NCBI GenBank assembly: GCA_021404565.1
Contig: JAAWWF010000001.1
Span: 317,613-357,612, forward strand
Length of the DNA: 40,000 nt
Direction of reading: 5' to 3'
From: Roseivirga sp.
GTDB lineage: Bacteria; Bacteroidota; Bacteroidia; Cytophagales; Cyclobacteriaceae
This document shows, piece after piece, positions 5,155-18,225 of the stretch. The position numbers were made by a program, and so were the translations under genes. Within the stretch, counting starts at the first letter, position 1. Each line of letters starts with the position of its first letter. The notes beneath the pieces were generated by a model. The model was not told where the DNA came from, made no database searches, and worked only from the letters and a program-made list of their open reading frames with translations.

Positions 5155-5991
5155 TCACATTACAATAGAGTCAATCGGACTCTTGACCTTCACAATCTGA
5201 TCACTTGCCACATGGGTATAGATCATAGTGGTTTTTATCGAGTTGTGTCCAAGAAGTTTTTGGATAACCCTGATATCCGTTCCCCCTTCCAACAGATGGG
5301 TAGCAAAACTATGTCTTAGGGTATGCAGGGTGACTGGCTTTTGTATACCAGCCTTTTTTGTCGACCTTTTAACAATTTTCAGCGCGCTACTCCTTGAATA
5401 AGAGGCGGAAGTTTGTCCTTCAAACAAGTACTCACGAGGTTGATATTTCCTGAAGTATTCTCTCAGCAACTTCCTTAAATTTTCAGGGAACATCAGCTGT
5501 CTATCCTTTTTACCCTTAGCATTGTAAATAGTCACTACTCCCCTACTGCCATCCAGGTCCTTTACTTTCAATTGAATTAGCTCCCCCACTCTAAGTCCGA
5601 GGCTATATATGGTCACCAGAATTGCCTTGTGCTTTAAATTATCGGTTACTCTTATTAGTGATGTCACCTCTTGTTTTGACAGAACTACCGGCAGTTTAAA
5701 AGCTTTTCTGGTTACACTCAGAACTGAAAGTGATACCTGCCTGTCATAAACCAGCTTGTAAAATAGCTGTGTAGCCCCGATTACTTGCTTTTGATAAGCA
5801 TAAGACATCTTTTTATGATAGAACAGTGAAAAACACAAGTCCTGTAAAAACGTATCAGCCAGTCGGCTCCAATCTTTGAATTTGCCCGAATGTTGTAGCA
5901 ACCTCAAGGCATTGATATATACATTAATTGTATTGTGACTATAGCCTTTTATAGTCAATAGCTTTTCAAAATCCTTTAGTGTCTGAATCAT
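5155..5991 (-). CDS. tyrosine-type site-specific recombinase (XerD-like; IntI-like C-terminus but no IntI-type insertion)
   Basis: The catalytic set is visible: R in LGLRVGEL, K in [17 protein letters not shown], LLGH, and Y in MIYTHV. The C-terminal tail is [10 protein letters not shown]. The track starts at TTG 6012. I prefer ATG 5991 ([12 protein letters not shown]), because the intervening codons coincide with an inverted-repeat arm. Confidence 0.85.
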   Translation of the reverse strand: [278 protein letters not shown]

Positions 5992-5993
5992 AC

Positions 5994-6099
5994 TTCCGCA
6001 ATAACCAACCAAATCGGGGTCTTCTTAACCACAGCTAAAATAAACGGAATTATCTAATTTACTCACCTATATATATTAAAAAGATTGGTTATTGCGGAA
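5994..6099. repeat. 15-bp perfect inverted repeat (ttccgcaataaccaa / ttggttattgcggaa) with a 76-bp spacer
   Basis: Arms at 5994-6008 and 6085-6099 are exact reverse complements. The left arm lies 3-17 nt upstream of the preferred recombinase ATG. The right arm lies just upstream of the attI-like junction. Confidence 0.8.
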
Positions 6100-6104
6100 C
6101 TTTT

Positions 6105-6134
6105 GACCAAATTCCACATATAAACGAGTTGGCA
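6105..6134 (+). other. attI-like junction (gaccaaattccacatataaacgaG|TTGGCA)
   Basis: First occurrence of the CACAT..AAC..GTT junction, next to the recombinase gene. GTTGGCA (6128-6134) is the reverse complement of TGCCAAC at 6740-6746. Confidence 0.6.
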
Positions 6135-6149
6135 TTCATTGAAACAAAC

Positions 6150-6455
6150 ATGAAGTACTTAATTGACTTATCAGGAATGATCGACCTAGAAACATTCCAT
6201 GAGTATGTATCTAAGAAGCTCGACTTTCCAGCATATTATGGACAAAATTTTGATGCATTTTGGGACTGTTTGACTGATATGGATTCAAATTCAAAAATTA
6301 GAGTAGAAGGACTATCAGACTTGAGAAAAAATCTTCCTGATGCTTATGATAAATTAAAAAAGTGCATAGACGACTATCGAGAAGAATATGGACAAATTGA
6401 ATTCATGCTTTTTGAAGATAGCCCGAGCGGTGAAGGACTGATTAACAACGTATAA
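6150..6455 (+). CDS. barstar-family ribonuclease inhibitor (orphan immunity protein)
   Basis: KKLDFPAYYGQNFDAFWDCLTD aligns closely with the barstar core [23 protein letters not shown], recalled from memory. The size is also barstar-like. The track starts at TTG 6129, but ATG 6150 (MKYLIDL) is more plausible. No barnase-like gene is nearby. Confidence 0.8.
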   Translation: MKYLIDLSGMIDLETFHEYVSKKLDFPAYYGQNFDAFWDCLTDMDSNSKIRVEGLSDLRKNLPDAYDKLKKCIDDYREEYGQIEFMLFEDSPSGEGLINNV

Positions 6456-6602
6456 ACGCATGTAAGAACTTGTGTTCAGAAGTTGAATTGATGTATAATA
6501 TGGTTACGAGTATAGAGTTTTGGATGAGTCTCATGATTAAGCAATTAATTACTGAACTGTTAAAATTCAAGCCTATGAATATTTTTAAAAACATAATTGT
6601 CG

Positions 6603-6716
6603 GAGTGGGAGCTGTAGTGTGGGACCACAACATTATGACTTGTAGAATATTGTACGGAGAGACAGCTTATCAAGACGGCAGCGATGGGGGTTCGATTCCC
6701 CCTTCCCACTCTCTCT
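6603..6716 (+). other. tRNA-like acceptor/T-arm mimic; not a canonical tRNA
   Basis: Perfect T-arm ggggg-ttcgatt-ccccc at 6686-6702. It is followed directly by tcccactc (6704-6711), which pairs perfectly with gagtggga (6603-6610). The about 75 nt in between give no credible D arm or anticodon arm. Confidence 0.35.
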
Positions 6717-6739
6717 TGAAAACAAATAAAAAAACGAAA

Positions 6740-6799
6740 TGCCAACAAGGTGTATAGTGCATACCCTTCGGGATACACACCATACACAGAACGTTAGTG
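6740..6799 (+). other. attC-like site 1 (60 bp)
   Basis: Sequence TGCCAAC-aag-GTGTAT-...c(ttcg)g...-ATACAC-agaac-GTTAGTG. A continuous imperfect hairpin has AAC/GTT at the base, an unpaired spacer, a 6-bp inner box and a TTCG-capped tip. Confidence 0.7.
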
Positions 6800-6818
6800 G
6801 GCATATTCCAGAGAACTT

Positions 6819-7451
6819 ATGAATTACAGGTTTCTTATTACACTTTTTCTCTCTTTGTCATCCAGTCTGGCTCTGGCTCAAGACCACCTGGAGCCGAATT
6901 CGAATATTTTTGAAGACTATGACTTTCAGTATCAATATTATTCTCAAATACGAGATTTGCTTTTTGAGGGACTTTCTGATCAACCAATTAGTCAATTGAT
7001 AATTTTACCTTCATTCTCCAAAGAGTTGGTATGGCAGATAGACAACAACCAAAAAGACAATAAATATTACTCCATTACAAGTACTGCAAATCATAGTATT
7101 TGGTACAATCAATACGAGGACAAACCGAAAAAATTAAAACAAGAAATTTCCAGAAACGAAATAACAAAAGAATCGGCCGAACTGATACGAAAATTGTTTT
7201 TGGTCGCATTGAAAGGCGTGAAATATTCTGATGACAGACAGGGGCTTGACGGGACTAATTATTATTTTTCTGTTACTGAGATGGGTTCAAAATCCGGCAC
7301 GATCTGGTCCCCGAGAAAAGGATCAAAAATGAGAGAATTGGTTGATCTTTCCCAAAGAGTCATAGGAGAAACTCAAAAGCAATCCAACTTAAGTAAGAGC
7401 TTAATTAAGGACATTAATAAACTCATATCGGAACTAAATAACGCTCACTAA
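6819..7451 (+). CDS. hypothetical secreted protein (cassette 2)
   Basis: 210-aa ORF with a signal peptide (MNYRFLITLFLSLSSSLALAQ). The ATG lies 26 nt after the GTT junction. The stop codon TAA is embedded in the CACTAAC box. Confidence 0.7.
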   Translation: MNYRFLITLFLSLSSSLALAQDHLEPNSNIFEDYDFQYQYYSQIRDLLFEGLSDQPISQLIILPSFSKELVWQIDNNQKDNKYYSITSTANHSIWYNQYEDKPKKLKQEISRNEITKESAELIRKLFLVALKGVKYSDDRQGLDGTNYYFSVTEMGSKSGTIWSPRKGSKMRELVDLSQRVIGETQKQSNLSKSLIKDINKLISELNNAH

Positions 7452-7563
7452 CAAACGCTACGAATGAATATGCGAACTGATCATTTTGAACAGACAGTGC
7501 TAAACAGAAACCTATGCACGTATAGCAAATGGAGTGCATACTCACTTCAGTCAGATGTTACCA
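7446..7563 (+). other. attC-like site 2 (about 118 bp)
   Basis: Starts with CACTAAC, the reverse complement of GTTAGTG at 6793-6799, and ends with GTTACCA. It contains a 7-bp hairpin, tatgcac...gtgcata. Its first about 35 nt are shared with the site at 9076. Confidence 0.6.
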
Positions 7564-7579
7564 CTCTTACCCAATACTC

Positions 7580-8338
7580 ATGAAGATTCTACTTACCATA
7601 TTCTTTCTATCATTCTTCAACTTTCCAAACGCCCAGGATGTGCCAACTCTTAAACCAAGAATTGGGAAGATGCTGAATTTCGGGCCAACTGTTCAAAAAG
7701 AATGGGCCATAAGAGACAAGGCAATGAGCGATTTAAGCGAGGGCAACAGAACATGGGACGAACTAACACCTGAAGAACAGGCAACCTTTGAAAAGTACGG
7801 GGAGATTTATGAAGATATGTGGGATATTGTGGGTGGTGCATGCACTTGGTATTGTGGCGGTGGCCAGGACACACAAACAGCCTCATCCGAACTGACTGCA
7901 CAAGGCACCAGCACATATAACGCACAAAATGCTCACGATTTAAGCTACGAAACAGCATGGGTGGAAGGCGTTTCGGGATATGGAATTGGAGAATATATTG
8001 AATATCATGTTGAGCCGGAAAACCCTCGAATGACCGAAATCATTATTGTCAACGGTTATGTAAAAAGTGATAACGCCTGGAAGAACAATTCCAGAGTCAA
8101 AAAATTAAAAATGTACATTGACAATAAACCATATGCCATCCTTGAACTTGAAGACTCTAAAGCCGAACAACATTTCAAGGTTGATCCGATTGGATATGGA
8201 GATCGCGACAACTTCGAACTTTTGAAGAAGAAGCCCGGGTTCACGCTCAAGTTTGAGATTGTAGATGTTTACCCTGGCTTAAAGTGGGAAGACACAGCAA
8301 TAACGGAAATTTACTTTGACGGGATTGACGTACATTAA
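7580..8338 (+). CDS. secreted protein with a C-terminal discoidin-like / NADase-type glycan-binding-like domain (cassette 3)
   Basis: Signal peptide MKILLTIFFLSFFNFPNAQ from ATG 7580; the track starts earlier, at 7529. The C-terminal pattern SSEL...Y.A.NA.D....TAWVEG..GYGIGEYIEY....IIIVNGY.KS......NSRVKK resembles that domain family. This assignment is from memory. Confidence 0.6.
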   Translation: MKILLTIFFLSFFNFPNAQDVPTLKPRIGKMLNFGPTVQKEWAIRDKAMSDLSEGNRTWDELTPEEQATFEKYGEIYEDMWDIVGGACTWYCGGGQDTQTASSELTAQGTSTYNAQNAHDLSYETAWVEGVSGYGIGEYIEYHVEPENPRMTEIIIVNGYVKSDNAWKNNSRVKKLKMYIDNKPYAILELEDSKAEQHFKVDPIGYGDRDNFELLKKKPGFTLKFEIVDVYPGLKWEDTAITEIYFDGIDVH

Positions 8339-8343
8339 ACATG

Positions 8344-8511
8344 TGGTAACATCCCCCCTCCCCCTCGTTCGCAACGAAGAGGCTAATCACGGAGCATCTC
8401 CATCTTTATTTCGTTAAATTAAAGCCAAAGACACAGCTTTGGCTACCGTGAGGGCGAAAGGAAAGGACAGTGCCTTGAAGTCCCTCGTAACACATCGCCA
8501 AACCGTTATGA
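8344..8511 (+). repeat. attC-like site 3; family-1 repeat copy A (about 168 bp)
   Basis: Starts with TGGTAAC, the reverse complement of GTTACCA at 7557-7563, and ends with aaaccGTTATGA. It shares long identical blocks with 9585-9766 and 13262-13440: gcaacgaagaggc, atctccatctttatt, ctttggctacc. An internal 8-bp hairpin is agccaaag-acacag-ctttggct. Confidence 0.7.
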
Positions 8512-8538
8512 GCAACAGAGTTGATTTAAAAATATTCC

Positions 8539-9081
8539 ATGAGGGATTTATTACTGTTTAGGGAGAATATAATCGATTCCCAAGAATTTGAAGAGCTTAA
8601 TAAATTGAGACTTCCGCCTGTTTACAAATCCTTTGCAACCGTATTCAAACCATATTTTGGTTTTACAACTTGTCTTGATGAATCGGATAGTATTAAGAAG
8701 GATTTCATGACACACATATTCTGTTCATTAGAAAAAGCGAAATATCAAATAGATGATGATGAACTTTCATTTGAACAGTTTATTGACTTAGAGGACTTAC
8801 TTAAATATGATAGTCAAAGGTATTATCTTGAGAAGTTTGGATTAATGCCAATTAGTAAGCATGGTCATTCCGGGAGTCTGTTTGTTGGTATGAAAAAAGA
8901 TAATCTAGATCAGATTTATTATGCCTTAGATACGCATGAGTTTAGTTTTATGGCAGATAACATATTTGAGTTACTAAGTAATTTCAGGTTAGTAACTGTC
9001 AATTATGATTTTGAAACCTTGGATGAAAATAAATTGTATCAAAACTGGAGAGAGGACTTTTGGAGGCACAAAAGCTCATAA
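8539..9081 (+). CDS. SMI1/KNR4 (SUKH superfamily) immunity-like protein (cassette 4)
   Basis: The N-terminal LRLPPVYKSFATVF and central LMPISKHGHSGSLFVGMKKDNLDQIYY fit the SUKH pattern (LP.dYk.F ... G.G..l.........vY). The stop TAA is embedded in TCATAAC. Confidence 0.6.
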   Translation: MRDLLLFRENIIDSQEFEELNKLRLPPVYKSFATVFKPYFGFTTCLDESDSIKKDFMTHIFCSLEKAKYQIDDDELSFEQFIDLEDLLKYDSQRYYLEKFGLMPISKHGHSGSLFVGMKKDNLDQIYYALDTHEFSFMADNIFELLSNFRLVTVNYDFETLDENKLYQNWREDFWRHKSS

Positions 9082-9123
9082 CGAATGCTAAAAATGAATA
9101 TGCGCACTGAGCCCTATGATAAT
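9076..9123 (+). other. attC-like site 4, apparently truncated or degenerate
   Basis: TCATAAC is the reverse complement of GTTATGA at 8505-8511. The next about 30 nt match the start of site 2: taac.aa.gcta..aatgaatatgcg.actga. No GTT junction follows, only GATAATC at 9117-9123, which overlaps the next ATG. Confidence 0.4.
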
Positions 9124-9580
9124 CTATAATCAAACTTCGACATTTAAGAAAAATGTAGGTGGCATTTTAATAGGCTTTTTGATTATACCAGCAATTTTTC
9201 TATTCATTCAAGGGTATATTTTCTATGGAATTGTTTTGATAATAATCTACCTGGCTTTTGAAACTTCACGAACCGGTGTAAATTTTAATTTTGGTGAATT
9301 TGAGTTTACAGATTTCAGAGAAGTATTGTTTATAAAAATCCGACAAAAGGAAAGTATTAGTCTTAACACTTTTAGCCGCTACAGGGTTAAACTACAGACT
9401 ACTACTACTACCATGAGGGCTAATTTTGTTCAACATTCTACGGTTTCGCAAGAACACCATACAGTAGAACTTTTTAATAAGCATCAAGGTGAGTTTTTAC
9501 CAATTGTCAAAAGCGATATTAGTCAGATTCAACCCCTTCTAATCAAATTAGAAGAGCAAAACATAATTTTAAAAGATTAA
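9116..9580 (+). CDS. hypothetical membrane protein (two N-terminal hydrophobic helices)
   Basis: 154-aa ORF with GGILIGFLIIPAIFLFIQGYIFYGIVLIIIYLAF. It is followed immediately by a family-1 repeat. Confidence 0.6.
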   Translation: MIIYNQTSTFKKNVGGILIGFLIIPAIFLFIQGYIFYGIVLIIIYLAFETSRTGVNFNFGEFEFTDFREVLFIKIRQKESISLNTFSRYRVKLQTTTTTMRANFVQHSTVSQEHHTVELFNKHQGEFLPIVKSDISQIQPLLIKLEEQNIILKD

Positions 9581-9584
9581 CGAC

Positions 9585-9766
9585 TCACAACAAACGCTAA
9601 ATCCCGCCTCTCTCCTCCTCATTTGCAACGAAGAGGCAAATCACGAAGCATCTCCATCTTTATTTTGTTAAATTTAGTCCCAAAGGCACAGCTTTGGCTA
9701 CCATGTGAGCGAAAAGAAAGGTTAGTACCTTGAAATCCCGCACTACGCATAGCCAAACCGTTCTCT
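9585..9766 (+). repeat. attC-like site 5; family-1 repeat copy B (about 180 bp)
   Basis: Begins with TCACAAC-aaacgcta; an alternative box GATTAAC at 9575-9581 overlaps the stop codon. Ends with aaaccGTTCTCT (9760-9766). It is collinear with copies A and C. Confidence 0.65.
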
Positions 9767-9854
9767 GCAAGCAAAAAATTAGAATTTCTGTCCTATTTAT
9801 TTAATCTCATTCGTCAGATAGGTGTTGATTTAAATTTTAAATAAAAGTAAACGA

Positions 9855-10208
9855 ATGAAAGATTTTATGATGCTGTTCCATAGTGAACCAAATCCAAATT
9901 ATGAACCAACTCCAGAAGAGATTCAAGACGAATTAAAAAGATGGGAGGACTGGATGGGATCTATTGGTGCTCAAGGAAAACTTAAAAATCCAGGAGAGGC
10001 ATTAGGCTTCGAAGGAAAAACAATGCACTCAGATGGATCTATCACCGATGGCCCCTATGCAGAAGTAAAAGAAATAGTTGGTGGATTTATGATTGTTAGT
10101 GCTGAGTCGGTTGAAGATGCGATCAAACTTGCTGATGGCTGCCCAGCGTTAGCCAGTGGAGGTAAAGTAGAAGTTAGAGATATTATGAATTTTGAAGATA
10201 TGGAATGA
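9855..10208 (+). CDS. YCII-related (DGPF-type) domain protein
   Basis: 117 aa with the motif DGPYAEVKEIVGGFMIVSAESVEDAIKLADGCP...VEVR, typical of YCII/DGPF proteins. Its stop overlaps the next gene's start (ATGA). Confidence 0.8.
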   Translation: MKDFMMLFHSEPNPNYEPTPEEIQDELKRWEDWMGSIGAQGKLKNPGEALGFEGKTMHSDGSITDGPYAEVKEIVGGFMIVSAESVEDAIKLADGCPALASGGKVEVRDIMNFEDME

Positions 10209-11473
10209 CATATCCCGAAAATGAAATAGCACAATTATTTAAGACAGAGTACAGTAACTTGGTTGCTGTACTTTGTCGTTTTTATGGCATTGAAAATATT
10301 CAATTGGCTCAGGATATTGTAAGCGACACTTTTCTTAAAGCTATGAAGACCTGGTGCCATAATGGGATACCCGACAAGCCCAAAGCGTGGTTAAGGCGAG
10401 TAGCTATTAACCAACTCAAAGATCATTTCAGAAGAGATAACGTTTTCCGCGAAAAAGTTCAACCAGAATATTACCATTCCATTGACAAGGACCTAAATGT
10501 TCCATTTAGTGAAGAACTCATAAATGATAGTCAGCTAAGGATGCTGTTTGTTATATGTCATTCTGAACTAAAGAAGGAAGAACATATTTGTCTATCGTTA
10601 AGACTGCTTTGTGGCTTTTCTGTAATTGAAATAGCAAAGGCACTTCTTACTTCAAAAGATGCCATTAATAAAAAAATGTACAGGGCTAAGCAAAAATTAA
10701 GGAATCACCGTGCTAGCTTTCGCGAGCTGAAAAAATCCGAATACAGCTATAGAATTGACAGCGTCTTGCGAATACTTTATCTACTTTTTAATGAAGGTTA
10801 TTACAGCAACAATATAGAAAAAGACATTCAATCGGACCTGTGCCGGGAAGCTCTTAGGCTAAGCCTTTTTTTATCACAACAATCGTTTTTACCCCGCAGT
10901 AAAATATATGCTCTAATTTCATTGATGAGCTTTCAAGCTTCGAGATTAGAAGCAAGAAAAAGTAAAGACGGACAATTTATTCTCTTCGAACAACAAGATA
11001 AAAGTTTGTGGAATAAGGACTTAATAAAGAAAGGAGAAGAATATTTATCCCTTTCCGCTAAAGGCTCTACGGTATCAAAATATCATTTGGAAGCTGCCAT
11101 TGCCTATTGGCATACTACTGATAAGAGTAAAAAATGGCAAAATATACTTCAACTCTATAATAGACTATTGACGATCGAATATTCTCCAATAATTGCTATG
11201 AATCGTACATATGCGTTAGCTAAGGCAAACTCCGTAGATGAGGCTTTAACAGAAGCTCAGAAGTTGAATTTGTCAGAGAACCATTTCTACTATTGCCTTA
11301 TTGCAGAATTATATAGAATGAAAGGTAATATGAAGAAGGAACTCGATTTGCTTAAACTTGCCTTACAATATGCGGAGAAGGAGAATGAACGAACTTTGAT
11401 ACAAACCAAGATAGAAAGCCAGCAAAAACCACCATCTTATACCGTACTGGGCGCTGGCTCTTCAAAAACGTAA
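10205..11473 (+). CDS. sigma-70 family (ECF-type) RNA polymerase sigma factor with a long C-terminal helical extension
   Basis: 422 aa. Region 2-like segment AQDIVSDTFLKAMKTW...PKAWLRRVAINQLKDHFRR, region 4-like segment LRLLCGFSVIEIAKALLTSKDAINKKMYRAKQKL, then about 230 aa of TPR-like helices. A YCII plus sigma pairing is a common operon type. Confidence 0.8.
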   Translation: MTYPENEIAQLFKTEYSNLVAVLCRFYGIENIQLAQDIVSDTFLKAMKTWCHNGIPDKPKAWLRRVAINQLKDHFRRDNVFREKVQPEYYHSIDKDLNVPFSEELINDSQLRMLFVICHSELKKEEHICLSLRLLCGFSVIEIAKALLTSKDAINKKMYRAKQKLRNHRASFRELKKSEYSYRIDSVLRILYLLFNEGYYSNNIEKDIQSDLCREALRLSLFLSQQSFLPRSKIYALISLMSFQASRLEARKSKDGQFILFEQQDKSLWNKDLIKKGEEYLSLSAKGSTVSKYHLEAAIAYWHTTDKSKKWQNILQLYNRLLTIEYSPIIAMNRTYALAKANSVDEALTEAQKLNLSENHFYYCLIAELYRMKGNMKKELDLLKLALQYAEKENERTLIQTKIESQQKPPSYTVLGAGSSKT

Positions 11474-11478
11474 ATCTC

Positions 11479-11588
11479 AGATAACGCACGAGCCAGCTTT
11501 ACACAAACTCTTAAAATAAACACCTCTAAAATCCCAAAGTCTTTTTATCTTCTTCTCAATTCACGTCTGATACCTTCGGACGTTGACA
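11479..11588 (+). other. possible attC-like site 6 (weak)
   Basis: AGATAAC at 11479-11485 is one mismatch from the AGAGAAC expected from GTTCTCT at 9760-9766. GTTGACA at 11582-11588 is preceded by ttcacgtctgataccttcggac. The fit to the junction consensus is only partial. Confidence 0.35.
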
Positions 11589-11633
11589 GTAATTCGGAAC
11601 AACAAAATTTGATTTGGACCAAATCTCAAAAAA

Positions 11634-12062
11634 ATGAAAACAACCACATTTCTAACATTTGTAGGTGTTCAATGCGGAAAGGCTGAAGAAGCCATAAATT
11701 TCTATACTTCTATCTTCCCAAACTCGGAAATTAAAAGCATTACAAAATACTCAGAAGGTGAGGCAGGAGGAACACCGGAGCTTATCAAACATGGAGTGTT
11801 TACATTAAATGGTGTGGAGTATATGGTTTCCGAAAGTAATTATAATCACGCCTGGTCATTTACACCTGGGGTATCCCTGTTTGTTTCCTGCAACTCTGAA
11901 GATGAGATACAAAATTTATTCGAAGAACTTTCTTCAAATGGAGGTCAGATAATGGTTCCTTTAGACAACTACCAAGGCGAAGGTGATTACGGATTTGGTA
12001 AAAAATTCGGATGGTGCGAAGACAAATATGGCATTTCATGGCAGCTGAATCTTTCAGAATAA
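11634..12062 (+). CDS. VOC-superfamily protein, PhnB-like (3-demethylubiquinone-9 3-methyltransferase-domain family)
   Basis: 142 aa. The pattern F.G.C.EA..FY..IF.....I........G........H..F.L.G......S........FTP..S..V ... KFGWC.DKYGISWQL is typical of this family. Confidence 0.75.
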   Translation: MKTTTFLTFVGVQCGKAEEAINFYTSIFPNSEIKSITKYSEGEAGGTPELIKHGVFTLNGVEYMVSESNYNHAWSFTPGVSLFVSCNSEDEIQNLFEELSSNGGQIMVPLDNYQGEGDYGFGKKFGWCEDKYGISWQLNLSE

Positions 12063-12093
12063 ATGAGATGGATTATTTAGTAATAACTACTTC

Positions 12094-12128
12094 GCCCAAA
12101 TTCCACATATCAACCTGTTATAGGCAAT
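12094..12128 (+). other. internal attI-like / attC-like junction (gcccaaattccacatatcaacctG|TTATAGgcaat)
   Basis: The 15 nt ccaaattccacatat (12096-12110) are identical to 6107-6121 in the attI-like site. An AAC..GTT..GCAAT junction follows. Confidence 0.55.
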
Positions 12129-12134
12129 TAAGAA

Positions 12135-12479
12135 ATGGAATATCAAGAATGTAACCTGAATATAAGATATGATTTGCCTAAAGACATTTGGGACAAAGTT
12201 CCTTTAATTTATCAAAAAATGAATGGCTGGATGGGCTTCGGAAAAGATGGAAATGAGGAAAGCGGAATTCCTTATTGGTTCAGCTATCACGAGGAAGAAA
12301 AATCTATTGTAGCCTCCGTTGAACCAAGCGGTCTTCAATTTTCAGCAAATATGGAGTTGAATGAATGGACGGAATGGAAAACCGAATTTAAAAGAGTAGC
12401 AACCAAAGTTCTCGGATTTAAGGTTGGTGAAATAGAAGAAGGTGAAGTTGATTACGAAATTCAATGGATAAAAGAATAA
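12135..12479 (+). CDS. hypothetical protein (cassette 8)
   Basis: 114-aa ORF starting 18 nt after the GTT junction. No recognisable family. Confidence 0.6.
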   Translation: MEYQECNLNIRYDLPKDIWDKVPLIYQKMNGWMGFGKDGNEESGIPYWFSYHEEEKSIVASVEPSGLQFSANMELNEWTEWKTEFKRVATKVLGFKVGEIEEGEVDYEIQWIKE

Positions 12480-12541
12480 ACCACCTACCATACCATGTAA
12501 TACTGCGTTAAACGTATTTCACACTAAACCTTATAAGCAAT
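12480..12541 (+). other. attC-like site 8, ending ...ttcacactaaacc|TTATAAGcaat
   Basis: The junction is homologous to 12111-12128 (aacc..TTATA.GCAAT), but C replaces the usual G before TT. An internal hairpin is gtaatac...gtatttc. Confidence 0.45.
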
Positions 12542-12598
12542 ACAAAGAGAGGGTCAGGTTTCACCAGGGTTAGTAATTGCCAGCATTATTCCATTCTA

Positions 12599-13201
12599 CT
12601 ATTTCTGTTTCACACATCTGACGCTAAGAGCATAGAACTTGGGGACACTACTTCGGTATATGGCACCTGTATCATTTCTAATATCACGATGCAAAGCGGA
12701 CTTTAAACTCGTTTCGGTGCTTAGCCAAAATGCAGACCTCTGCCCTCTGCGGTCATAGGATCCATTTGGCCTTCTGTAACCTGATATAGTTGCATTGAAC
12801 TTTAAATCCCCACCAATTCTAAGACGTTCACCTTGAGAAGTTCCCCTGAATTTTTCATTTAATAATTCACTTTCCGGGATTCCAATAACTTTCTCAAGTT
12901 CCAACCAATCTGAATCACTTGAAAGCCTCCATCCATCAGGACAAACTTTACAGGCATCGTACCAGGTATAAAGTCGTCCGTTTTTATCACAGTCATTCAG
13001 GTCATCATCATAACACCAGCTTGAATCTGTTTCAAAGGCAAGGTTTTCAGCCATCCAGATCTGTCCATCAATTTCTATCGTTTGATAAATTCTTCCATCA
13101 CGCTCATCAGTAAAAACTCCTTGCTCCTTTTTTGTACAACTGATTGAAAAAGACAAAACAGTGAGCGTCACTAATACAATTATCCGATCCATAAAGCTCA
13201 T
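12599..13201 (-). CDS. FISUMP (Fibrobacter succinogenes major paralogous) domain lipoprotein, inverted relative to the array
   Basis: Lipobox-like LSFSISC. Family pattern: GRIYQTIEIDGQIWMAENL, GRLYTW, CPDGWRLSSDSDW, GYR..NG, FWLST. Confidence 0.8.
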   Translation of the reverse strand: MSFMDRIIVLVTLTVLSFSISCTKKEQGVFTDERDGRIYQTIEIDGQIWMAENLAFETDSSWCYDDDLNDCDKNGRLYTWYDACKVCPDGWRLSSDSDWLELEKVIGIPESELLNEKFRGTSQGERLRIGGDLKFNATISGYRRPNGSYDRRGQRSAFWLSTETSLKSALHRDIRNDTGAIYRSSVPKFYALSVRCVKQK

Positions 13202-13261
13202 TCTATAGTTTCAAGATGAAAATATGCTTATCGTCTTATTTACGTGAACTGTTGTACTTCG

Positions 13262-13440
13262 GATACTATTCAAACTCTCTCCTCCTCGCAGGCAACGAAG
13301 AGGCAAATCACGGAGAATCTCCATCTTTATTTCGTTAAGTTTAATCTCAAAGACAAAACTTTGGCTACCGCCCGTGCGGCTGAACAGGACAGTGCCCTAC
13401 CCTTCCCGCGCTACACATAGCCAGAACGTAGGACGCAAGC
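13262..13440 (+). repeat. family-1 repeat copy C, ending agaacGTAGGACgcaagc
   Basis: Collinear with copies A and B. The left half is near-identical (ctctcctcctc..gcaacgaagaggcaaatcacggagaatctccatctttatttcgttaa). The junction triplet is GTA rather than GTT, and no clear xxxxAAC start box is present. Confidence 0.65.
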
Positions 13441-13469
13441 AGAAAAACCAAATAATGTAGCATTGATTT

Positions 13470-14171
13470 ATGAATACTTCTGAGATAATAGAGTTACTCG
13501 AAGAACATCGCAATGAGCGTGGTATTGATCATTGGAATAGATTGAACCCGGAACCTGATAGCTTGAAGAGCTTTGGTATTGGGTTGACTGTCTTGCGCAA
13601 ATTGGCAAAGAAGCTGGGACGAGATCATGAGTTGTCCAAAACGCTATGGGAGAGTGATATTTATGATGTCAAGGTACTTTCTCTGCTGATTGATGATCCT
13701 AAGTTGATGAGCGTGGAGCAAGCAGAATCTCAGGTAGACCACCTGTATAAGGGGCATCTGGCACACGTGTTTTCATCCTGTGATGCAGCCCTGGCTAAAA
13801 CCTCATTTGTGGTCCCTCTTTTAATGAGTTGGATCAACAGCAATAACACTATTCGTAAGCGATGTGGATATGGTCTGCTCTATGAGGTTTCAAAATTCAC
13901 TAAAAAGAGTGCTCCTGACAACTCATTTTTTTTGGATAGAATCGAGCAAATTCAAAATTCATTCAGGGATGAGAAGAATATCATCAAACTCGCCATGGCC
14001 GGGGCACTCCTGGGTATTGGCAAAAGAAATGTAGCATTGAATTCAGCGGCACTCGCTGTTGCTCAACAAATGGGCCCCGTTGATGTCAATTCTGGTGTAA
14101 CCAATTGTGAGCCCTTTGATATTGTCAAGCATTTGACAAGCGATTACCTTAAGAACAAGCTTAACGTCTGA
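13470..14171 (+). CDS. DNA alkylation repair protein (HEAT-like repeat, AlkD/AlkC-related family)
   Basis: 233 aa. The N-terminal pattern (EEHRNERGIDHWNRL...FGIGLTVLRKLAKKLGRDHELSKTLWESDIYDVKVLSLLIDDP) matches the DNA_alkylation family as I recall it. Confidence 0.65.
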   Translation: MNTSEIIELLEEHRNERGIDHWNRLNPEPDSLKSFGIGLTVLRKLAKKLGRDHELSKTLWESDIYDVKVLSLLIDDPKLMSVEQAESQVDHLYKGHLAHVFSSCDAALAKTSFVVPLLMSWINSNNTIRKRCGYGLLYEVSKFTKKSAPDNSFFLDRIEQIQNSFRDEKNIIKLAMAGALLGIGKRNVALNSAALAVAQQMGPVDVNSGVTNCEPFDIVKHLTSDYLKNKLNV

Positions 14172-14184
14172 CAGGTCACATATT

Positions 14185-14215
14185 CTGAGAACAATTCTTT
14201 AACAAGGCTTATAAC
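14185..14215 (+). other. terminal cluster of xxxxAAC boxes (cTGAGAAC, TTTAAC, CTTATAAC)
   Basis: CTTATAAC (14208-14215) is the reverse complement of GTTATAAG and matches TTATAAG at 12531-12537. No downstream GTT junction occurs before the convergent gene's stop at 14234. Confidence 0.45.
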
Positions 14216-14233
14216 AGAAAGAAACCTATCTGA

Positions 14234-16087
14234 TCAATTCTTAGAAAACAATGCCGGATTCCCCAGAACAATAGATTGACGGGCATGAATTACCTCTCCA
14301 TTCTCGCCAATCCCCTCAACAATTACTTCATAAACTCCAACATCGTCTGAGGTATAGAAATCTATCTGGGCGCGACCTCTGCGGGCTTTTACCAATGGTT
14401 CCCAGTAAAGCACCGGGCGAAAATCTGGTGAAGGCGACTTACGGTTCCGTGTATTGTAATCTGGCTGGGGATAGTTACCGGTTTGGATATACAGTTTTGT
14501 GCTCAATAGATCATTAAACTCTTCCTGAAAGGGATTGGTCACGCCCTCCTTGAGCCTGATGACGATCACCCCGTTGGATCCAAAATAACCATAACGGGCA
14601 ACCTCCTGCGCCTGGTCACGCTGTGTACCGTTCTGAGGATCTTTCATAACCCCTACCCCCTCTATATCCGTCATAGGGATAGCAAAAACTTTTTCCAGAT
14701 CGAGTGTAGGCACGCCATCTACCAAAAACAAAGGGGCGCTCTCGTAGCGTCCTCCTGAAAAGTTGAGCTTAACATCTTTCTTCTTTGGCGTGTTCCAGAC
14801 CTTCATCCCCGTCACTATTTCTTTTAGGAATTCTGGTACCGAAGCCATATCGGAATAATCAGCGGTCTTCTGATACTGTATAGGCTGGTAATTCATGCGA
14901 TTGGTCTCCAGTCGGCTCTCCTTTTCCGGCACAGGCTCATAGGCCTGTCCTTTATAAATTTCACCCAGAATCTCTTTCTTCTGGGCATAATCCAACACAT
15001 AATCTGAAGCCTGAGGAGTGCGAAGTAGCTCTGCATTAAATACTTTATTGTAGTCTCTGGGTCTTACAATCCAGGAGAAATTCATCATTCCCTCGTTGTC
15101 TGCCATATCACGGGTAGTGCGAAAGGTCATGCTATTGAAGGTTCGCTTACTGAAAGAAAAGTTATTGAAGAAAAAGGTCTTGCGATCTCCCGTCAGCTCT
15201 GTTCCGTCCAACACAAACAGGCCCGGTTTTACCTCAAAAATGGTCAAAGAAACCTGATCTTCAGCCACATAAGCATAAGGTATACTGGACCCATCGAGGG
15301 AATCCAGTTGTAGCAATTCATAGAGCAGGCTTCCATGCGAACTCACCAGAGACCAGTTCAGTGGCTTATTCTCACGGTAGTTTGTACGCTCTACCTCCGA
15401 AAGTGTAGCATTTACCTCAGGGTTTCCAGGGTCGAGCATAATGCTTCGTATATCTCGCTGCTTTTCAGTACTCATTCTTCGCTCACGCACCACTACTGAT
15501 AAGTCAGCATTGGTGAAGCCTTTGAGGTTGATGGCTATAGAGGCTCTCTCACGGGCGCCATAGCTCCTCTTATTAGCTACCACCGTTACATAATCACTGT
15601 CCACTGTACTACTCCCAGCCGATTGAGCGGATACCTGCCTTTGCTCTTCTGTCTCACTGCTGATGATTTCGTTGGGATTGAAAACGGAGATCACCTTACG
15701 GTAAATGAAATTTTCCACATCCTCAAAAGGATAGCTCACCACGATCATATAATTGCCTGTGGTAAGAAAGCCCGGCAGCTCAAACTGGCCAGCAGAACGC
15801 CCGTCTTCAACCTTGATACGCTCTTTCTTGACAATTTGCTTATTGCGGTCTATCAGGGCAAGCTCCATAAACCTTCTGCCGAAAATAAGCCGATGTGCAT
15901 CGGCTGTCATATTAAACAGACTGTACCATACCGTTTCTCCACTTAGGTAGAAGGGTTTGTCGAACTGGATATAAATCTCCTGGTTCTGCGCCTGGGCCAT
16001 TGAAAACTCAGACTGATCATTAGTCTGAGCTGAGATGGTCCAGACCGGAAACAAGAAAACAAGAAAAAGTACTTTCTTCATAACCAT
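14234..16087 (-). CDS. secreted protein with an N-terminal MG2-like domain and a TonB-receptor Plug-like domain
   Basis: Signal peptide present. YIQFDKPFYLSGETVWYSLF resembles bacterial macroglobulin MG2 domains. LFLVDGVPTLD...IPMTDIEGVGVMKDP...ARYGYFGSNGVIVIRLKEG resembles the Plug domain. It is the last gene of an overlapping four-gene operon. Confidence 0.7.
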   Translation of the reverse strand: MVMKKVLFLVFLFPVWTISAQTNDQSEFSMAQAQNQEIYIQFDKPFYLSGETVWYSLFNMTADAHRLIFGRRFMELALIDRNKQIVKKERIKVEDGRSAGQFELPGFLTTGNYMIVVSYPFEDVENFIYRKVISVFNPNEIISSETEEQRQVSAQSAGSSTVDSDYVTVVANKRSYGARERASIAINLKGFTNADLSVVVRERRMSTEKQRDIRSIMLDPGNPEVNATLSEVERTNYRENKPLNWSLVSSHGSLLYELLQLDSLDGSSIPYAYVAEDQVSLTIFEVKPGLFVLDGTELTGDRKTFFFNNFSFSKRTFNSMTFRTTRDMADNEGMMNFSWIVRPRDYNKVFNAELLRTPQASDYVLDYAQKKEILGEIYKGQAYEPVPEKESRLETNRMNYQPIQYQKTADYSDMASVPEFLKEIVTGMKVWNTPKKKDVKLNFSGGRYESAPLFLVDGVPTLDLEKVFAIPMTDIEGVGVMKDPQNGTQRDQAQEVARYGYFGSNGVIVIRLKEGVTNPFQEEFNDLLSTKLYIQTGNYPQPDYNTRNRKSPSPDFRPVLYWEPLVKARRGRAQIDFYTSDDVGVYEVIVEGIGENGEVIHARQSIVLGNPALFSKN

Positions 16088-16093
16088 CAGTTT

Positions 16094-17158
16094 TTAATTT
16101 CTCCACCAGGCTGGAGCAAAGATTCCAAAGTTCTCCTGATATTCATACAACCTGCAATCTTCACAAGGGTGTGGCCTGTCAGCGAAAGGGGGTATTGTGC
16201 ATGGCGGATAGGTTCTGGGGTTAAACCCAAGATCAGCATCAGTAAAAAACACTCTGTCGAGCGACTCTCTGTAAACACCAAAATATCCCAGCACACTTTC
16301 ACCATTAGCTCCCCGGATATTGCCCTCAATAGAATGTGGCGCTGCATCGAAAAGGCTGCCGGAGTTTTCAGCCTGTCGCCTGACAGCATCCCAAAATTCA
16401 AAATCTTCTTCCGTCAGCGTAAGCAGTACACCCTCCACACCAAAATCTACTTTCATCTTAGCCGAACGCGGTATAAAATCGATTGGGTAAGTATATTCTG
16501 CTATACCTCCCTGGGCAGGATTATCTTGCAAAAGCACCACCTGTGCTTCATCAAAGTCCCGTATATAGCAATACTTGAAAGCATCCGGAGCCAGGTCGGA
16601 CTGTATGACAAAATACTGCCCGACTACCCATTGGTAAAAATGTCTGTTGCCATCCTTTTGAATGGTAGCTTCTATCAGTGCCCCTTCCTCCTGGTCAATC
16701 ATGTTATTAGATAAAACATCCCGGGTATCACCTCGAAAAGAAATATCTGCCGAAGCAGGTGATGGCGGTGGTAAAGTCTTCACCTCTGATTTATATACCT
16801 CACCGTTGGGCAGCGTTACCACCAACTGGTAGCTAACTCCTTCTCTCACGGCATATTGAGGGGCCGTCAGGTATAATCCGCTCTGCCTGTGATTGAGAAC
16901 CGTAAAACCGCCCTGGTCATCCACTATTCTAACATCCGCATCGGTGACAAAGTCTGTTTCTACCTGTCCCCGATTGTTAATTGTGGTGGAATAGCTCACT
17001 TTCACCACATGGGCCTTACCATTATCGGTAACATAACCATCAATGACCACAACTGGCTCCAATACATCCGGATAGTCAAAATCAAAGGCTTCTCTGCAAG
17101 CAGAAAGCATCACAAAAAGGGCCAACAATATATATTTATGCCATTTCATCGCCACCAT
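16094..17158 (-). CDS. DUF4249 family lipoprotein (paralog 2)
   Basis: Lipobox LSAC followed by REAFDFD...VVIDGYVTD..KAHVVKVSYS, typical of DUF4249. Overlaps both neighbouring genes. Confidence 0.75.
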   Translation of the reverse strand: MVAMKWHKYILLALFVMLSACREAFDFDYPDVLEPVVVIDGYVTDNGKAHVVKVSYSTTINNRGQVETDFVTDADVRIVDDQGGFTVLNHRQSGLYLTAPQYAVREGVSYQLVVTLPNGEVYKSEVKTLPPPSPASADISFRGDTRDVLSNNMIDQEEGALIEATIQKDGNRHFYQWVVGQYFVIQSDLAPDAFKYCYIRDFDEAQVVLLQDNPAQGGIAEYTYPIDFIPRSAKMKVDFGVEGVLLTLTEEDFEFWDAVRRQAENSGSLFDAAPHSIEGNIRGANGESVLGYFGVYRESLDRVFFTDADLGFNPRTYPPCTIPPFADRPHPCEDCRLYEYQENFGIFAPAWWRN

Positions 17159-18225
17159 GAAGGTTTAGTAGTTGAATTAAAACGTGCCGAAACTGAAGCA
17201 CAATTGAAGCAATTATTTTCAAGGGTCACATTGTGGTGCCCGGGGCAATCCACAGGACTGGTAGGCAGAGACCTTTTTGGAAAAGGAAGCTCATCCTGAT
17301 TAAAGAAAAGGTGTGTACTCGTTTCATTAAAAACTCCGAAGAAGCCCAGAACCTCAATGTTCCCGCGTACCTGTCTGATATTCCCCTGAATTGAGGCAGG
17401 GGACGAATCAAAAACACCTCCGGTGTTTTCCAGTTGCTTTCTGATATTCTCAAAGTAGGTATACATCTCTGCAGAAATCTGGTAGCGGATAAAATGAATC
17501 CCATAGTCATAGATCATTTTATTACCATATAATATCCCTGCCACGTCTAAGCGGTATTGGTTTCCTGTGAGTCCTTCAATCCCCTTGTCCTGATAGACAA
17601 GCATTTCGGTCTGAGGCAGATCCTGGATATAGCAAAAACGATGTGAGCCCGGAAGATCCGTACCTGGCTGCCCATAGGCATCGTATATATAGTAATGCTC
17701 AAGGTTCCAGTGATAGTATTGGTTCTCACCTGCCTTTGCTATTTCGTCACTGATGGTTACGGCCAGTTCATGGCTGATATTCCCATTCACTGAGAGTACC
17801 TCCACCGTATCGGCCCTGAAAGAAGGCCTCGGTGCTACTCCCTGGTCTACAGACAGCCTTGCCCAATCTGATTGAAACAGGCCATCGCCTACCCTCACAG
17901 AAAGCTGATACTCTTTGCCAAACTCGGCTTTGAAAGAAGAGTTTATATATTCTCCTTCACCCTTTCCTGTAAATACAAAATCATTACCATCCCGATCGGA
18001 AATCGTGACAATGGCATTATTCTCATCTTCATAAACCACACCCTGATCAGGTACCAGAGGGCTTGTATATGAAACCCTGACATAACCATTCTCGCCCGTA
18101 TCTGTCACCACAGCATCAATCACCAGCTTTCTGGAATTGGCCTCAATACCGCCAAGGTCAAACGCTTCTCTGCACCCCAGTACCAGAAAAAGCATTAGCA
18201 ATGATATGGTTATCCGACTACTCAC
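17146..18225 (-). CDS. DUF4249 family lipoprotein (paralog 1)
   Basis: Lipobox LVLGC followed by REAFDLG...LVIDAVVTD...YVRVSYTS. There is a 4-nt overlap with the upstream receptor gene. Confidence 0.75.
   Translation of the reverse strand: MSSRITISLLMLFLVLGCREAFDLGGIEANSRKLVIDAVVTDTGENGYVRVSYTSPLVPDQGVVYEDENNAIVTISDRDGNDFVFTGKGEGEYINSSFKAEFGKEYQLSVRVGDGLFQSDWARLSVDQGVAPRPSFRADTVEVLSVNGNISHELAVTISDEIAKAGENQYYHWNLEHYYIYDAYGQPGTDLPGSHRFCYIQDLPQTEMLVYQDKGIEGLTGNQYRLDVAGILYGNKMIYDYGIHFIRYQISAEMYTYFENIRKQLENTGGVFDSSPASIQGNIRQVRGNIEVLGFFGVFNETSTHLFFNQDELPFPKRSLPTSPVDCPGHHNVTLENNCFNCASVSARFNSTTKPSWWR

Follow-up and report, generated by a model that had tools for sequence, protein, structure and literature searches.

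Sedentary chromosomal integrons such as the Vibrio cholerae superintegron, with its integrase IntIA and its V. cholerae repeats (VCR), comprise a tyrosine recombinase that adjoins an attI site, short cassettes that mostly hold one open reading frame (ORF), and attC sites, which are imperfect palindromes with an invariant AAC…GTT and recombine at GTT. Mobile integrons of classes 1-3 work by this mechanism too. The start of an integron cassette is reportedly complementary to the end of the same cassette, a classical property said to go back to Hall, Brookes and Stokes in 1991 and to Stokes and co-workers in 1997; the rule of mirrored boxes described below is not new and is the classical basis of integron crossover mapping. 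The features of attC sites have been reviewed (PMC8946536). IntegronFinder and the NCBIfam model TIGR02249 use an additional, IntI-specific domain as the criterion that separates IntI from Xer recombinases. For Bacteroidetes, where earlier only In0 had been reported, IntegronFinder 2.0 now gives one complete integron, in Salinibacter (PMC9024848), and a 2024 preprint places Bacteroidota among the clades previously without integrons (bioRxiv 2024.07.02.601686). Here we describe a locus of Roseivirga sp. (Bacteroidota) at positions 5155 to ~14230 of a 40,000-nt stretch of contig JAAWWF010000001.1 (317,613 to 357,612), the whole of which we call the window. It is a low-GC chromosomal array of ~8-10 cassettes adjoining a divergent recombinase and a conserved attI (…ATATAAACGA|GTT), and it very probably represents a chromosomal integron-type cassette platform in which attC-like palindromes separate the cassettes. 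The element works like an integron but is not a canonical one, with the integrase domain and the extrahelical bases missing. It is probably a new form of integron whose own-end signature is already known.

The direct observations behind this reading are a complementarity rule at the cassette ends, a covarying attC stem, the coupling of the sites to the recombinase, a conserved attI and the replacement of cassettes at that attI. The features of the left part of the locus, with R'' denoting the NNNNAAC box and R' the GTTNNNN box of an attC site, are the following.

5155-5991, minus strand: compact IntI-like tyrosine recombinase, 278 amino acids from the ATG at 5991
5994-6006 and 6087-6099: perfect 13-nt inverted repeat TTCCGCAATAACC / GGTTATTGCGGAA, which brackets the recombinase start and promoter region
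6114-6134, plus strand: attI core CCACATATAAACGA|GTTGGCA, with cassette 1 starting at the GTT at 6128
6128-6792, plus strand: cassette 1, with a barstar-family ORF at 6150-6455 (Pfam Barstar, 1.7e-21) and ~285 nt of non-coding DNA
6740-6799, plus strand: attC-A, 60 nt, with R'' TGCCAAC, a 3-nt spacer, the stem, a 5-nt spacer and R' GTTAGTG
6793-7556, plus strand: cassette 2, whose ORF at 6819-7451 encodes a predicted secreted protein without a family match
7446-7563, plus strand: attC-B, 118 nt, with the stem TGA-A-TAT-G/A-CG containing A·C mismatches
7557-8504, plus strand: cassette 3, with an ORF at 7580-8338 for a NADase-translocation / discoidin-type glycan-binding domain (Pfam NADase_transloc, 3.4e-54; NCBIfam NF047619)
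8344-8511, plus strand: attC-C, a long repeat of 168 nt, with R'' TGGTAAC, a core of ~95 nt, an attC-like 3' half (…CATCGCCAAACC) and R' GTTATGA
8505-9759, plus strand: cassette 4 and a fused unit, with an ORF at 8539-9081 (SUKH/SMI1_KNR4-like; Pfam SMI1_KNR4 at 7.8e-5, below the cut-off), then an ORF at 9116-9580

Four consecutive cassettes begin with a GTTNNNN box that is the exact reverse complement of the NNNNAAC box at their own 3' end: GTTGGCA at 6128-6134 with TGCCAAC at 6740-6746 in cassette 1, GTTAGTG at 6793 with CACTAAC at 7446 in cassette 2, GTTACCA at 7557 with TGGTAAC at 8344 in cassette 3, and GTTATGA at 8505 with TCATAAC at 9076 in cassette 4. A first-pass annotation of this DNA had pointed out these four pairs and three more as the mark of integron cassettes, and all seven lie in the sequence where it had placed them. 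Own-end pairing extends over 9, 8 and 9 contiguous base pairs in cassettes 1, 3 and 4, beyond 7 nt in three of the four exact pairs; in cassette 2 (GTTAGTGGGCAT / ACGCTCACTAAC) it comprises 7 base pairs, a G·T and two further pairs, with a conserved mismatch at k = 10, where k counts the positions past the G. Two further pairs carry one mismatch each, as had been noted: A·C in GTTGACA/TATCAAC and T·C in GTTCTCT/AGATAAC. The fifth pair that had been listed as exact, TTATAAG at 12531 with CTTATAAC at 14208, is an 8-bp complement, but the preceding base is C rather than G. Other, unrelated 7-mers likewise match between the same two regions, so this pair cannot be told from chance statistically. 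A GCAAT cassette-start consensus on its 3' side and a spacer-like AAACC on its 5' side make a mutated junction plausible here.

The annotation had judged a chance origin of the pattern very unlikely. After the array had been split into 11 intergenic regions, four exact complements were found between consecutive regions, five in the 100 non-consecutive pairs of regions and none within a single region. Mononucleotide shuffles of the intergenic regions gave P = 0.0006, re-ordering of the real intergenic regions gave P = 0.0018, and only 1 of 700 placements of the same geometry slid over the remainder of the window reached four. The pattern is therefore real (P ~0.0006-0.002), but in the window alone it is far less extreme than (1/256)^4. 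The script that the annotation had proposed, which seeks the reverse complement of each box downstream, turned out to be unspecific, since with a 6-kb horizon it chained 13 "cassettes" through ordinary genes; independently defined sites were therefore required. A generic AAC…GTT hairpin finder with anchored alignment recovered attC-A alone amid many equal-scoring chance matches and was dropped.

Sites were accordingly defined in related loci. A scan of species-representative genomes yielded 80 loci with recombinases of 34-51% identity, and a first set of attC sites was defined by arm motifs that ignore the NNNN bases. In this set, pairing with the own cassette was perfect in 35 of 57 cases (17 of 27 after strand de-duplication), compared with 3 of 109 for each attC taken as it stands within its array and 0 of 63 with the wrong neighbour. 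Single examples of the rule were read directly in L081, L083, L021 and L091, and in Flagellimonas sp. C4 a downstream, co-oriented array reads …CATATAAACAA|GTTGGCA … TGCCAAC-attC-GTTGTAA … TTACAAC. A covariance model, R1, built on a 35-site alignment gave 125 matches at E <= 1 in 1.13 Mb; removal of the weaker-strand duplicates left 107 non-redundant matches at approximately E <= 0.01, one of which is attC-A of the window (45.9 bits; E = 1.7e-7 over all loci and 1.3e-9 locally). Perfect own-end 7-mers, comprising 26 different words, were found in 58 of the 76 cassettes bounded by consecutive model matches. Global permutations averaged 3.2 such cassettes and reached at most 14, and those made within loci averaged 17.8 and reached at most 33. 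These loci give the rule its decisive support. Sites that were self-complementary as they lie in the array numbered 5 of 101. Most of the cassettes that fail the rule are long intervals, which probably hide an undetected site. The proposal that the rule be sought in homologous arrays was thus borne out, and the boxes behave in both the window and its relatives as those of integron-type cassettes, in which each 5' half pairs with its own 3' NNNNAAC and not with that of the neighbour.

These counts bear on the simplest alternative, namely that the boxes are chance words in AT-rich DNA, or belong to terminators, to repeats resembling repetitive extragenic palindromes, or to the terminal inverted repeats of transposon-like units. 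The unconstrained 6-kb search that chains through the whole window, the unspecific generic hairpin finder and the fifth pair that word statistics cannot separate from chance all speak for it. We nevertheless consider it extremely unlikely, given the window P values of 0.0006 to 0.002, the 58 of 76 cassettes across loci against the global permutation maximum of 14, and the tie of the sites to one recombinase gene. Terminators are opposed by the mRNA-sense stems, whose A·C mismatches make them poorer RNA terminators than the antisense stems. Transposon-like units are opposed by the lack of a transposase in the array and by neighbouring units that share one hairpin, none having a terminal repeat pair of its own (target-site duplications were not searched).

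The pairing also defines the attC structure. Complementarity by position over the 76 cassettes was found in 62-75 cassettes at k = 0-8, in none at k = 10 and in 51-60 at k = 11-13, with no excess at k < 0. Position 10 is never paired: there an invariant A on the cassette-start side stands opposite C or G. The R stem extends to ~14 bp (position 13 past the G). What looks like conservation after GTTNNNN (GCAA…) arises from an extended R' consensus, NNA(A/C)AT. The 35-site alignment comprises the invariant AAC/GTT, spacers of 3 nt and 5-7 nt, and a stem of 16 positions, the form that the sites take in related Flavobacteriia. In these sites 86.5% of the cells are paired, compared with 70.8% in shuffles, compensatory changes occur in ten pairs, and the stem covariation score is 0.305, compared with 0.073 for shuffled and at most 0.043 for slid controls. 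A·C stands at stem positions 7 and 12 in 33 and 30 of the 35 sites, respectively, and in 47 and 69 of 72 model matches outside the seed; on the bottom strand these are T·G. The two extrahelical bases that canonical sites carry on the R''/L'' arm were not found, and the stem is unbulged in most sites.

Of 42 motif-defined sites, 38 fold more stably on the bottom strand, and so do 67 of the 72 matches outside the seed (Wilcoxon p = 2e-11 for the latter). In attC-A the bottom strand folds at -8.9 kcal/mol and the top strand at -5.4 kcal/mol. Rebuilding each window site with the R' of its own cassette improved the fold from -11.3 to -16.8 kcal/mol for attC-A, from -9.2 to -16.4 kcal/mol for attC-B and from -22.6 to -25.8 kcal/mol for attC-C. 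Replacing the neighbour's TTNNNN by the own one thus gains 3-7 kcal/mol in all three, with the R stem closing the fold, which is a hairpin in attC-B and multibranched in attC-C.

In own R'/R'' complementarity and in the better folding of the bottom strand these sites resemble integron attC sites, and the R'' box with its spacer (TAAC-AAACGC) presumably resembles VCR, which we take as a lead only. They differ from integron sites in three respects: the stem carries fixed A·C/T·G mismatches rather than two bulged bases, the R stem is ~14 bp long with an invariant unpaired A, and the R' consensus is GTT-R-NNN instead of GTTRRRY.

These properties can be set against a second alternative, in which modules are exchanged at double-stranded Xer/dif-like sites, as proposed for the pdif modules of Acinetobacter plasmids, and no single strand is folded. 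The enzyme is indeed Xer-sized, matching archaeal XerA and XerC/D in size and in a two-domain architecture without insertions, and XerA and XerD align to it end to end in a single stretch; the attI also resembles a short inverted pair, TATAAAC-GA-GTTGGCA. However, the junctions are imperfect palindromes of 60-230 nt that stand in arrays, not single ~28-bp dif sites, and the 26 freely varying NNNN words stay complementary to the other end of the same cassette. The inner stem covaries, whereas a duplex site would keep its sequence and not its pairing, and a fixed mismatch that is A·C in one strand and T·G in its complement matters only if single strands fold. A duplex site of ~28 bp, with two 11-bp arms and a 6-8-bp centre, was not found at the cassette junctions, where no dedicated dif search was made. 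Taken together, we consider duplex exchange quite improbable, and the folded-site integron-type reading is retained.

The attC sites are coupled to the recombinase gene. The 106 model matches other than attC-A, from 83 related loci, lie downstream on the recombinase strand (101) or upstream on the opposite strand (5), and none lies otherwise. The arrays of Flavobacteriia lie downstream of the integrase gene and are co-oriented with it, unlike those of known integrons. A box related to that of the window, CATATAAACAA|GTTNNNN, is present 75-140 nt past the recombinase stop in 29 of 72 genome loci, compared with 0.014 expected. In the 25 loci with model matches downstream of the recombinase, the word after this box (~100-140 nt past the stop) is the exact complement of the R'' of the first detected attC in 21.

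Closer relatives preserve the arrangement of the window itself. Contigs with recombinases of 70-79% identity have the same leader, consisting of the 13-nt inverted repeat followed by …ATAYAAACGW|GTT. The repeat pair is kept as TTCCGSAATAAC in all close relatives (platforms L081-L090), and the box …ATAYAAACGW|GTT in L081-L083 and L085-L089. The inverted repeat may be a binding site for a regulator or an accessory recombinase site. First cassettes of these relatives end in the complement of their own start, as in L083 (GTTGTGC…GCACAAC) and L081 (GTTGGCA…TGCCAAC). Three contigs from different samples, L085, L086 and L087, have an identical recombinase and an identical 134-nt leader and split immediately after the GTT, where L085 continues with GTTGGGCACAAT, and L086 and L087 continue with GTTATGTGCCAT. 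Such a split directly shows one attI occupied by different cassettes in different populations. A number of metagenome contigs, including some among L084 and L090, end at or near attI, which is consistent with heterogeneity of the first cassette within populations.

The first-pass annotation had placed the crossover between G and TT. Alternative first cassettes diverge right after GTT, attI boxes end in …AAACAA|GTT, and there is no excess complementarity 5' of the G, so that the crossover is located at the invariant GTT. Inside the GTT, where the sequences fit G|TT and GTT| alike, it would fall at G|TT by analogy with canonical integrons (PMC8876359).

The same observations bear on a third alternative, a canonical integron remnant or attC cluster that has no integron integrase (CALIN), in which a true IntI, lost or located elsewhere, built the array and the compact Xer-type enzyme is an unrelated neighbour. 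A remnant would fit with a recombinase that has no IntI-specific domain, stays below the cut-off for integron integrases and scores as high against archaeal XerA models as against IntI, and with the decay of parts of the window array. Against it, attC sites occur in 28 loci of many genera in only the two configurations given above, the attI box keeps its distance from the gene with the first cassette starting exactly there, identical platforms carry different first cassettes, and none of the 120 proteins closest to the recombinase, nearly all of which have 265-287 amino acids, is of IntI length. A CALIN with an unrelated neighbour is consequently very improbable, and we continue with the compact enzyme as the recombinase of the platform.

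This recombinase has the catalytic residues R134, K159, H223, R226, H249 and Y258, none of which varies among 48 homologues. Its Pfam Phage_integrase match is at 1e-41, and an alternative start, TTG at 6012, would give 285 amino acids. After the catalytic Tyr it shares with IntI1 a C-terminal motif, …VKSPxD (…VRSPLD in IntI1). Among plasmid records, IntI1 (32% identity) ranks directly behind a Flagellimonas homologue; the nearest plasmid-borne recombinases outside the compact family are IntI1, a point of difference from Xer. Homologues of 265-287 amino acids are abundant in Bacteroidota, including Roseivirga, Cyclobacteriaceae, Flagellimonas/Muricauda and Maribacter, and the closest named one comes from a Roseivirga metagenome-assembled genome. 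Among characterised enzymes, IntI integrases are the nearest to it. The best PDB match is the V. cholerae integrase VchIntIA (2a3v), in a split alignment of query residues 15-187 on 9-181 and 211-280 on 248-317, in which 66 residues of VchIntIA (182-247) face 23 residues of the window enzyme. Aligned with the IntI1 of an E. coli plasmid, the enzyme shows two gaps, one of 31 and one of 11 residues, that remove the ALERKYP-containing insertion, …PDALERKYPRAG…, and both gaps are common to all seven family members aligned. The AlphaFold model (predicted local distance difference test score 84.9) agrees: its top Foldseek match is again 2a3v, with 320 alignment columns for 278 residues (~40 gap columns), and only ~16 residues lie between helices 170-183 and 200-213. 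Foldseek E-values of the model are similar for Xer and IntI. Three 270-residue ORFs elsewhere in the window resemble paralogues by length, yet are unrelated.

To explain how such an enzyme could serve the array, we propose the following model. The mirrored boxes are the two halves of each cassette's R box. In a free circular cassette, pairing of NNNNAAC (R'') with GTTNNNN (R') would close the hairpin of the attC. The cassette would then be linearised by recombination at the invariant GTT, which puts the TTNNNN… half at the 5' end and leaves R'' at the 3' end, and insertion would take place at attI, by crossover at the GTT common to attI and attC. The recombinase may act on the folded bottom strand as IntI does, with the fixed T·G mismatches and the unpaired A possibly replacing the extrahelical bases in marking the recombinogenic strand. 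Such T·G marking would fit with the loss or absence of the IntI domain, which is the one that reads extrahelical bases.

Several points weigh against the integron-type interpretation. The recombinase reaches 194 bits, in two stretches, against the integron integrase model TIGR02249, below its cut-off of 265. The IntI-specific insertion of ~42 amino acids (ALER motif / I2 helix) is absent, and this insertion has been described as essential for integron function (PMC8138268). That the recombinase acts on these attI and attC sites is itself a reading of the sequences, and the enzyme is IntI-like without the feature that defines IntI. In the arrays, ~9 of the 35 attC sites show one extra base, located on the 3' (L') arm, so that "no bulges" is not universal, and the strand asymmetry of the model matches is partly circular, since the A·C columns had gone into the model. 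When 83 cassette units were compared all against all by blastn, no identical cassette appeared in two arrays; the similarity was confined to distant ORFs, and cassette boundaries could for this reason not be mapped by blastn. In the window, attC-A is the only site that significantly matches the family model, and the long repeats, attC-E and the junction at 12091-12123 (described below) do not fold as standard attC sites.

In VchIntIA, the I2 helix of the ~42-residue insertion contacts the extrahelical bases, and its lack sets the window integrase apart from the integrases of known integrons. So does the host, since this phylum is nearly integron-free in IntegronFinder surveys (PMC9024848; bioRxiv 2024.07.02.601686). 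The compact family may be among the members of the subgroup of simple tyrosine recombinases that Smyshlyaev et al. 2021 classified as "integron-like", in which insertion-less members were not linked to attI sites or cassette arrays, and the insertion was stated to be essential for integron function. In the literature searched, we found no description of the present system; absence there is no proof of novelty.

The family also occurs on a plasmid. The mobilizable (MOBB) Flagellimonas marinaquae plasmid NZ_CP092416.1 (L091) encodes a recombinase of 47% identity with a divergent array of two cassettes (9913-12825). Its first cassette reads GTTATGC…erm(F), inverted…GCATAAC and is followed by an attC of 42 bits. 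The second reads GTTGGCATTCAT…dihydrofolate reductase (DHFR)-family gene…ACGAAATGCCAAC and is succeeded by an attC of 125.8 bits, beyond which stands a Tn3 transposase. Both cassettes obey the own-end rule and adjoin this Tn3-family gene.

Considering these loci jointly, we give an even chance to a broader claim: that Bacteroidota (Flavobacteriales, Cytophagales, Saprospirales and others) hold a widespread, unrecognised lineage of integrons with a compact, domain-less integrase and T·G-marked attC sites, which is invisible to standard detectors built on the IntI C-terminal profile and a proteobacterial attC model, is active, as first cassettes differ on identical platforms, and is already present on a mobilizable plasmid with erm(F) and DHFR. 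If this is true, the IntI-specific domain is not universally required for recombining folded attC sites, and strand choice could lie in the T·G mismatches; the compact enzyme would also bear on how integrons arose from Xer-like enzymes, being either a natural intermediate in that step or a reduced form. The integron hosts would gain a phylum that is large and dominant in the environment, and cassette reservoirs would be under-counted by survey tools that depend on the IntI domain and on proteobacterial attC models. Detectors blind to the compact system would explain the near integron-free reputation of the phylum. The erm(F) example would make the system relevant to the mobility of resistance genes in Bacteroidota.

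GC content is 35-41% in the array region and 44-48% in the flanks, and the genome level is regained after ~14000. The cassette genes of the window are accessory and immunity-type, of the kinds usual in integron cassettes (barstar and SUKH), and include one for a small membrane protein; the units are short, mostly single-ORF and on the plus strand. Cassettes of the related loci have a median length of 743 nt and carry TIR, restriction-modification and toxin-antitoxin genes.

Beyond attC-A, the sites of the window are of other types. attC-B represents a second sequence type, common to the first attC of L081 and to a half-site at 9076, and is missed by model R1. In cassette 4, the exact R'' TCATAAC (9076-9082) is followed by only the 5' half of a B-type attC (9076-9119), which runs into the ORF at 9116-9580. 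This looks like a deletion that fused two cassettes. The cassette 4 start pairs with 9076 over 9 bp, and the alternative partner at 9585 has one A·C mismatch. The features farther right are the following.

9585-9766, plus strand: attC-D, second of the long repeats, with R'' TCACAAC and R' GTTCTCT at its ends
9760-11581, plus strand: two-gene cassette, with a YCII-domain ORF at 9855-10208 and an extracytoplasmic function (ECF) sigma factor with DUF6596 at 10205-11473
11479-11588, plus strand: attC-E, a degenerate junction with R'' AGATAAC and R' GTTGACA at its ends, then GTAAT
11582-12116, plus strand: VOC cassette, with a VOC / 3-demethylubiquinone-9 3-methyltransferase-family ORF at 11634-12062 (Pfam, 5.8e-30)
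12091-12123, plus strand: partial attI duplicate as a junction instead of an attC, 24 of 29 nt identical to 6102-6130, then GTTATAG GCAAT
12117-14215, plus strand: decayed distal array, made up of the entries below
12135-12479: ORF
12530-12541: possible junction, cTTATAA GCAAT
12599-13201, minus strand: reversed Fib_succ_major ORF
13262-13432: third long repeat, which ends in GTA in place of GTT
13470-14171: DNA_alkylation-family ORF
14209-14215: terminal R''-like TTATAAC

The array beyond cassette 4 is partly decayed, and the pairings there are at most plausible. Signs of decay in the right half are the fifth pair without its G, the truncated attC, the GTA end, the degenerate attC-E and the partial attI copy that serves as a junction. 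attC-D is a weak model match with exactly these ends (9.9 bits, E = 0.75), in which the 3' arm fits and the 5' arm is disrupted. The two-gene cassette has the own ends GTTCTCT/AGATAAC, with the single T·C mismatch. attC-E folds weakly, without a convincing stem, and has the extended R' consensus. The junction at 12091-12123 shows no extended own-end pairing with the start at 11582. It copies the left half of attI, a half that normal attI x attC reactions should not move.

The three long repeats of ~170 nt (8344-8511, 9585-9766 and 13262-13432) combine an attC-like 3' half with a 95-nt core between R'' and the stem. The cores, at 8354-8448, 9608-9702 and 13275-13369, are 72-86% identical and were not found in the 83 related loci. 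The core could have been inserted into attC sites, or it could be an extension of the attC specific to this host. Readings of the core as a promoter, terminator or RNA were rejected, its small hairpin CCTC…GAGG showing no covariation among the three copies.

Three related loci depart from the usual picture. In L008 (Allomuricauda), attC sites lie on both sides of the recombinase, divergent upstream and co-oriented downstream, at 1099-1229 and 8292-8420 on the minus strand and at 11422-18580 on the plus strand, and the locus may hold two arrays or two platforms. A Nitrospirae metagenome-assembled genome (L032) and a Patescibacteria one (L017) have the recombinase and an attI-like box, L017 together with attC matches; their placement could reflect a binning error or lateral spread.

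Finally, the non-coding tail of cassette 1 contains a tRNA-like fold at 6603-6711 on the plus strand, with a 9-bp acceptor stem (GAGTGGGAG/CTTCCCACTC), a perfect T-arm (GGGGGTTCGATTCCCCC) and a 47-nt insertion in the middle. It scores 22.8 bits against Rfam tRNA-Sec, below the gathering score of 47, and ARAGORN does not call it; neither ARAGORN nor Rfam at gathering thresholds gives a match anywhere in the window. A pseudogene or fragment of a tRNA is one possible origin of the fold, and a former attachment site is another.

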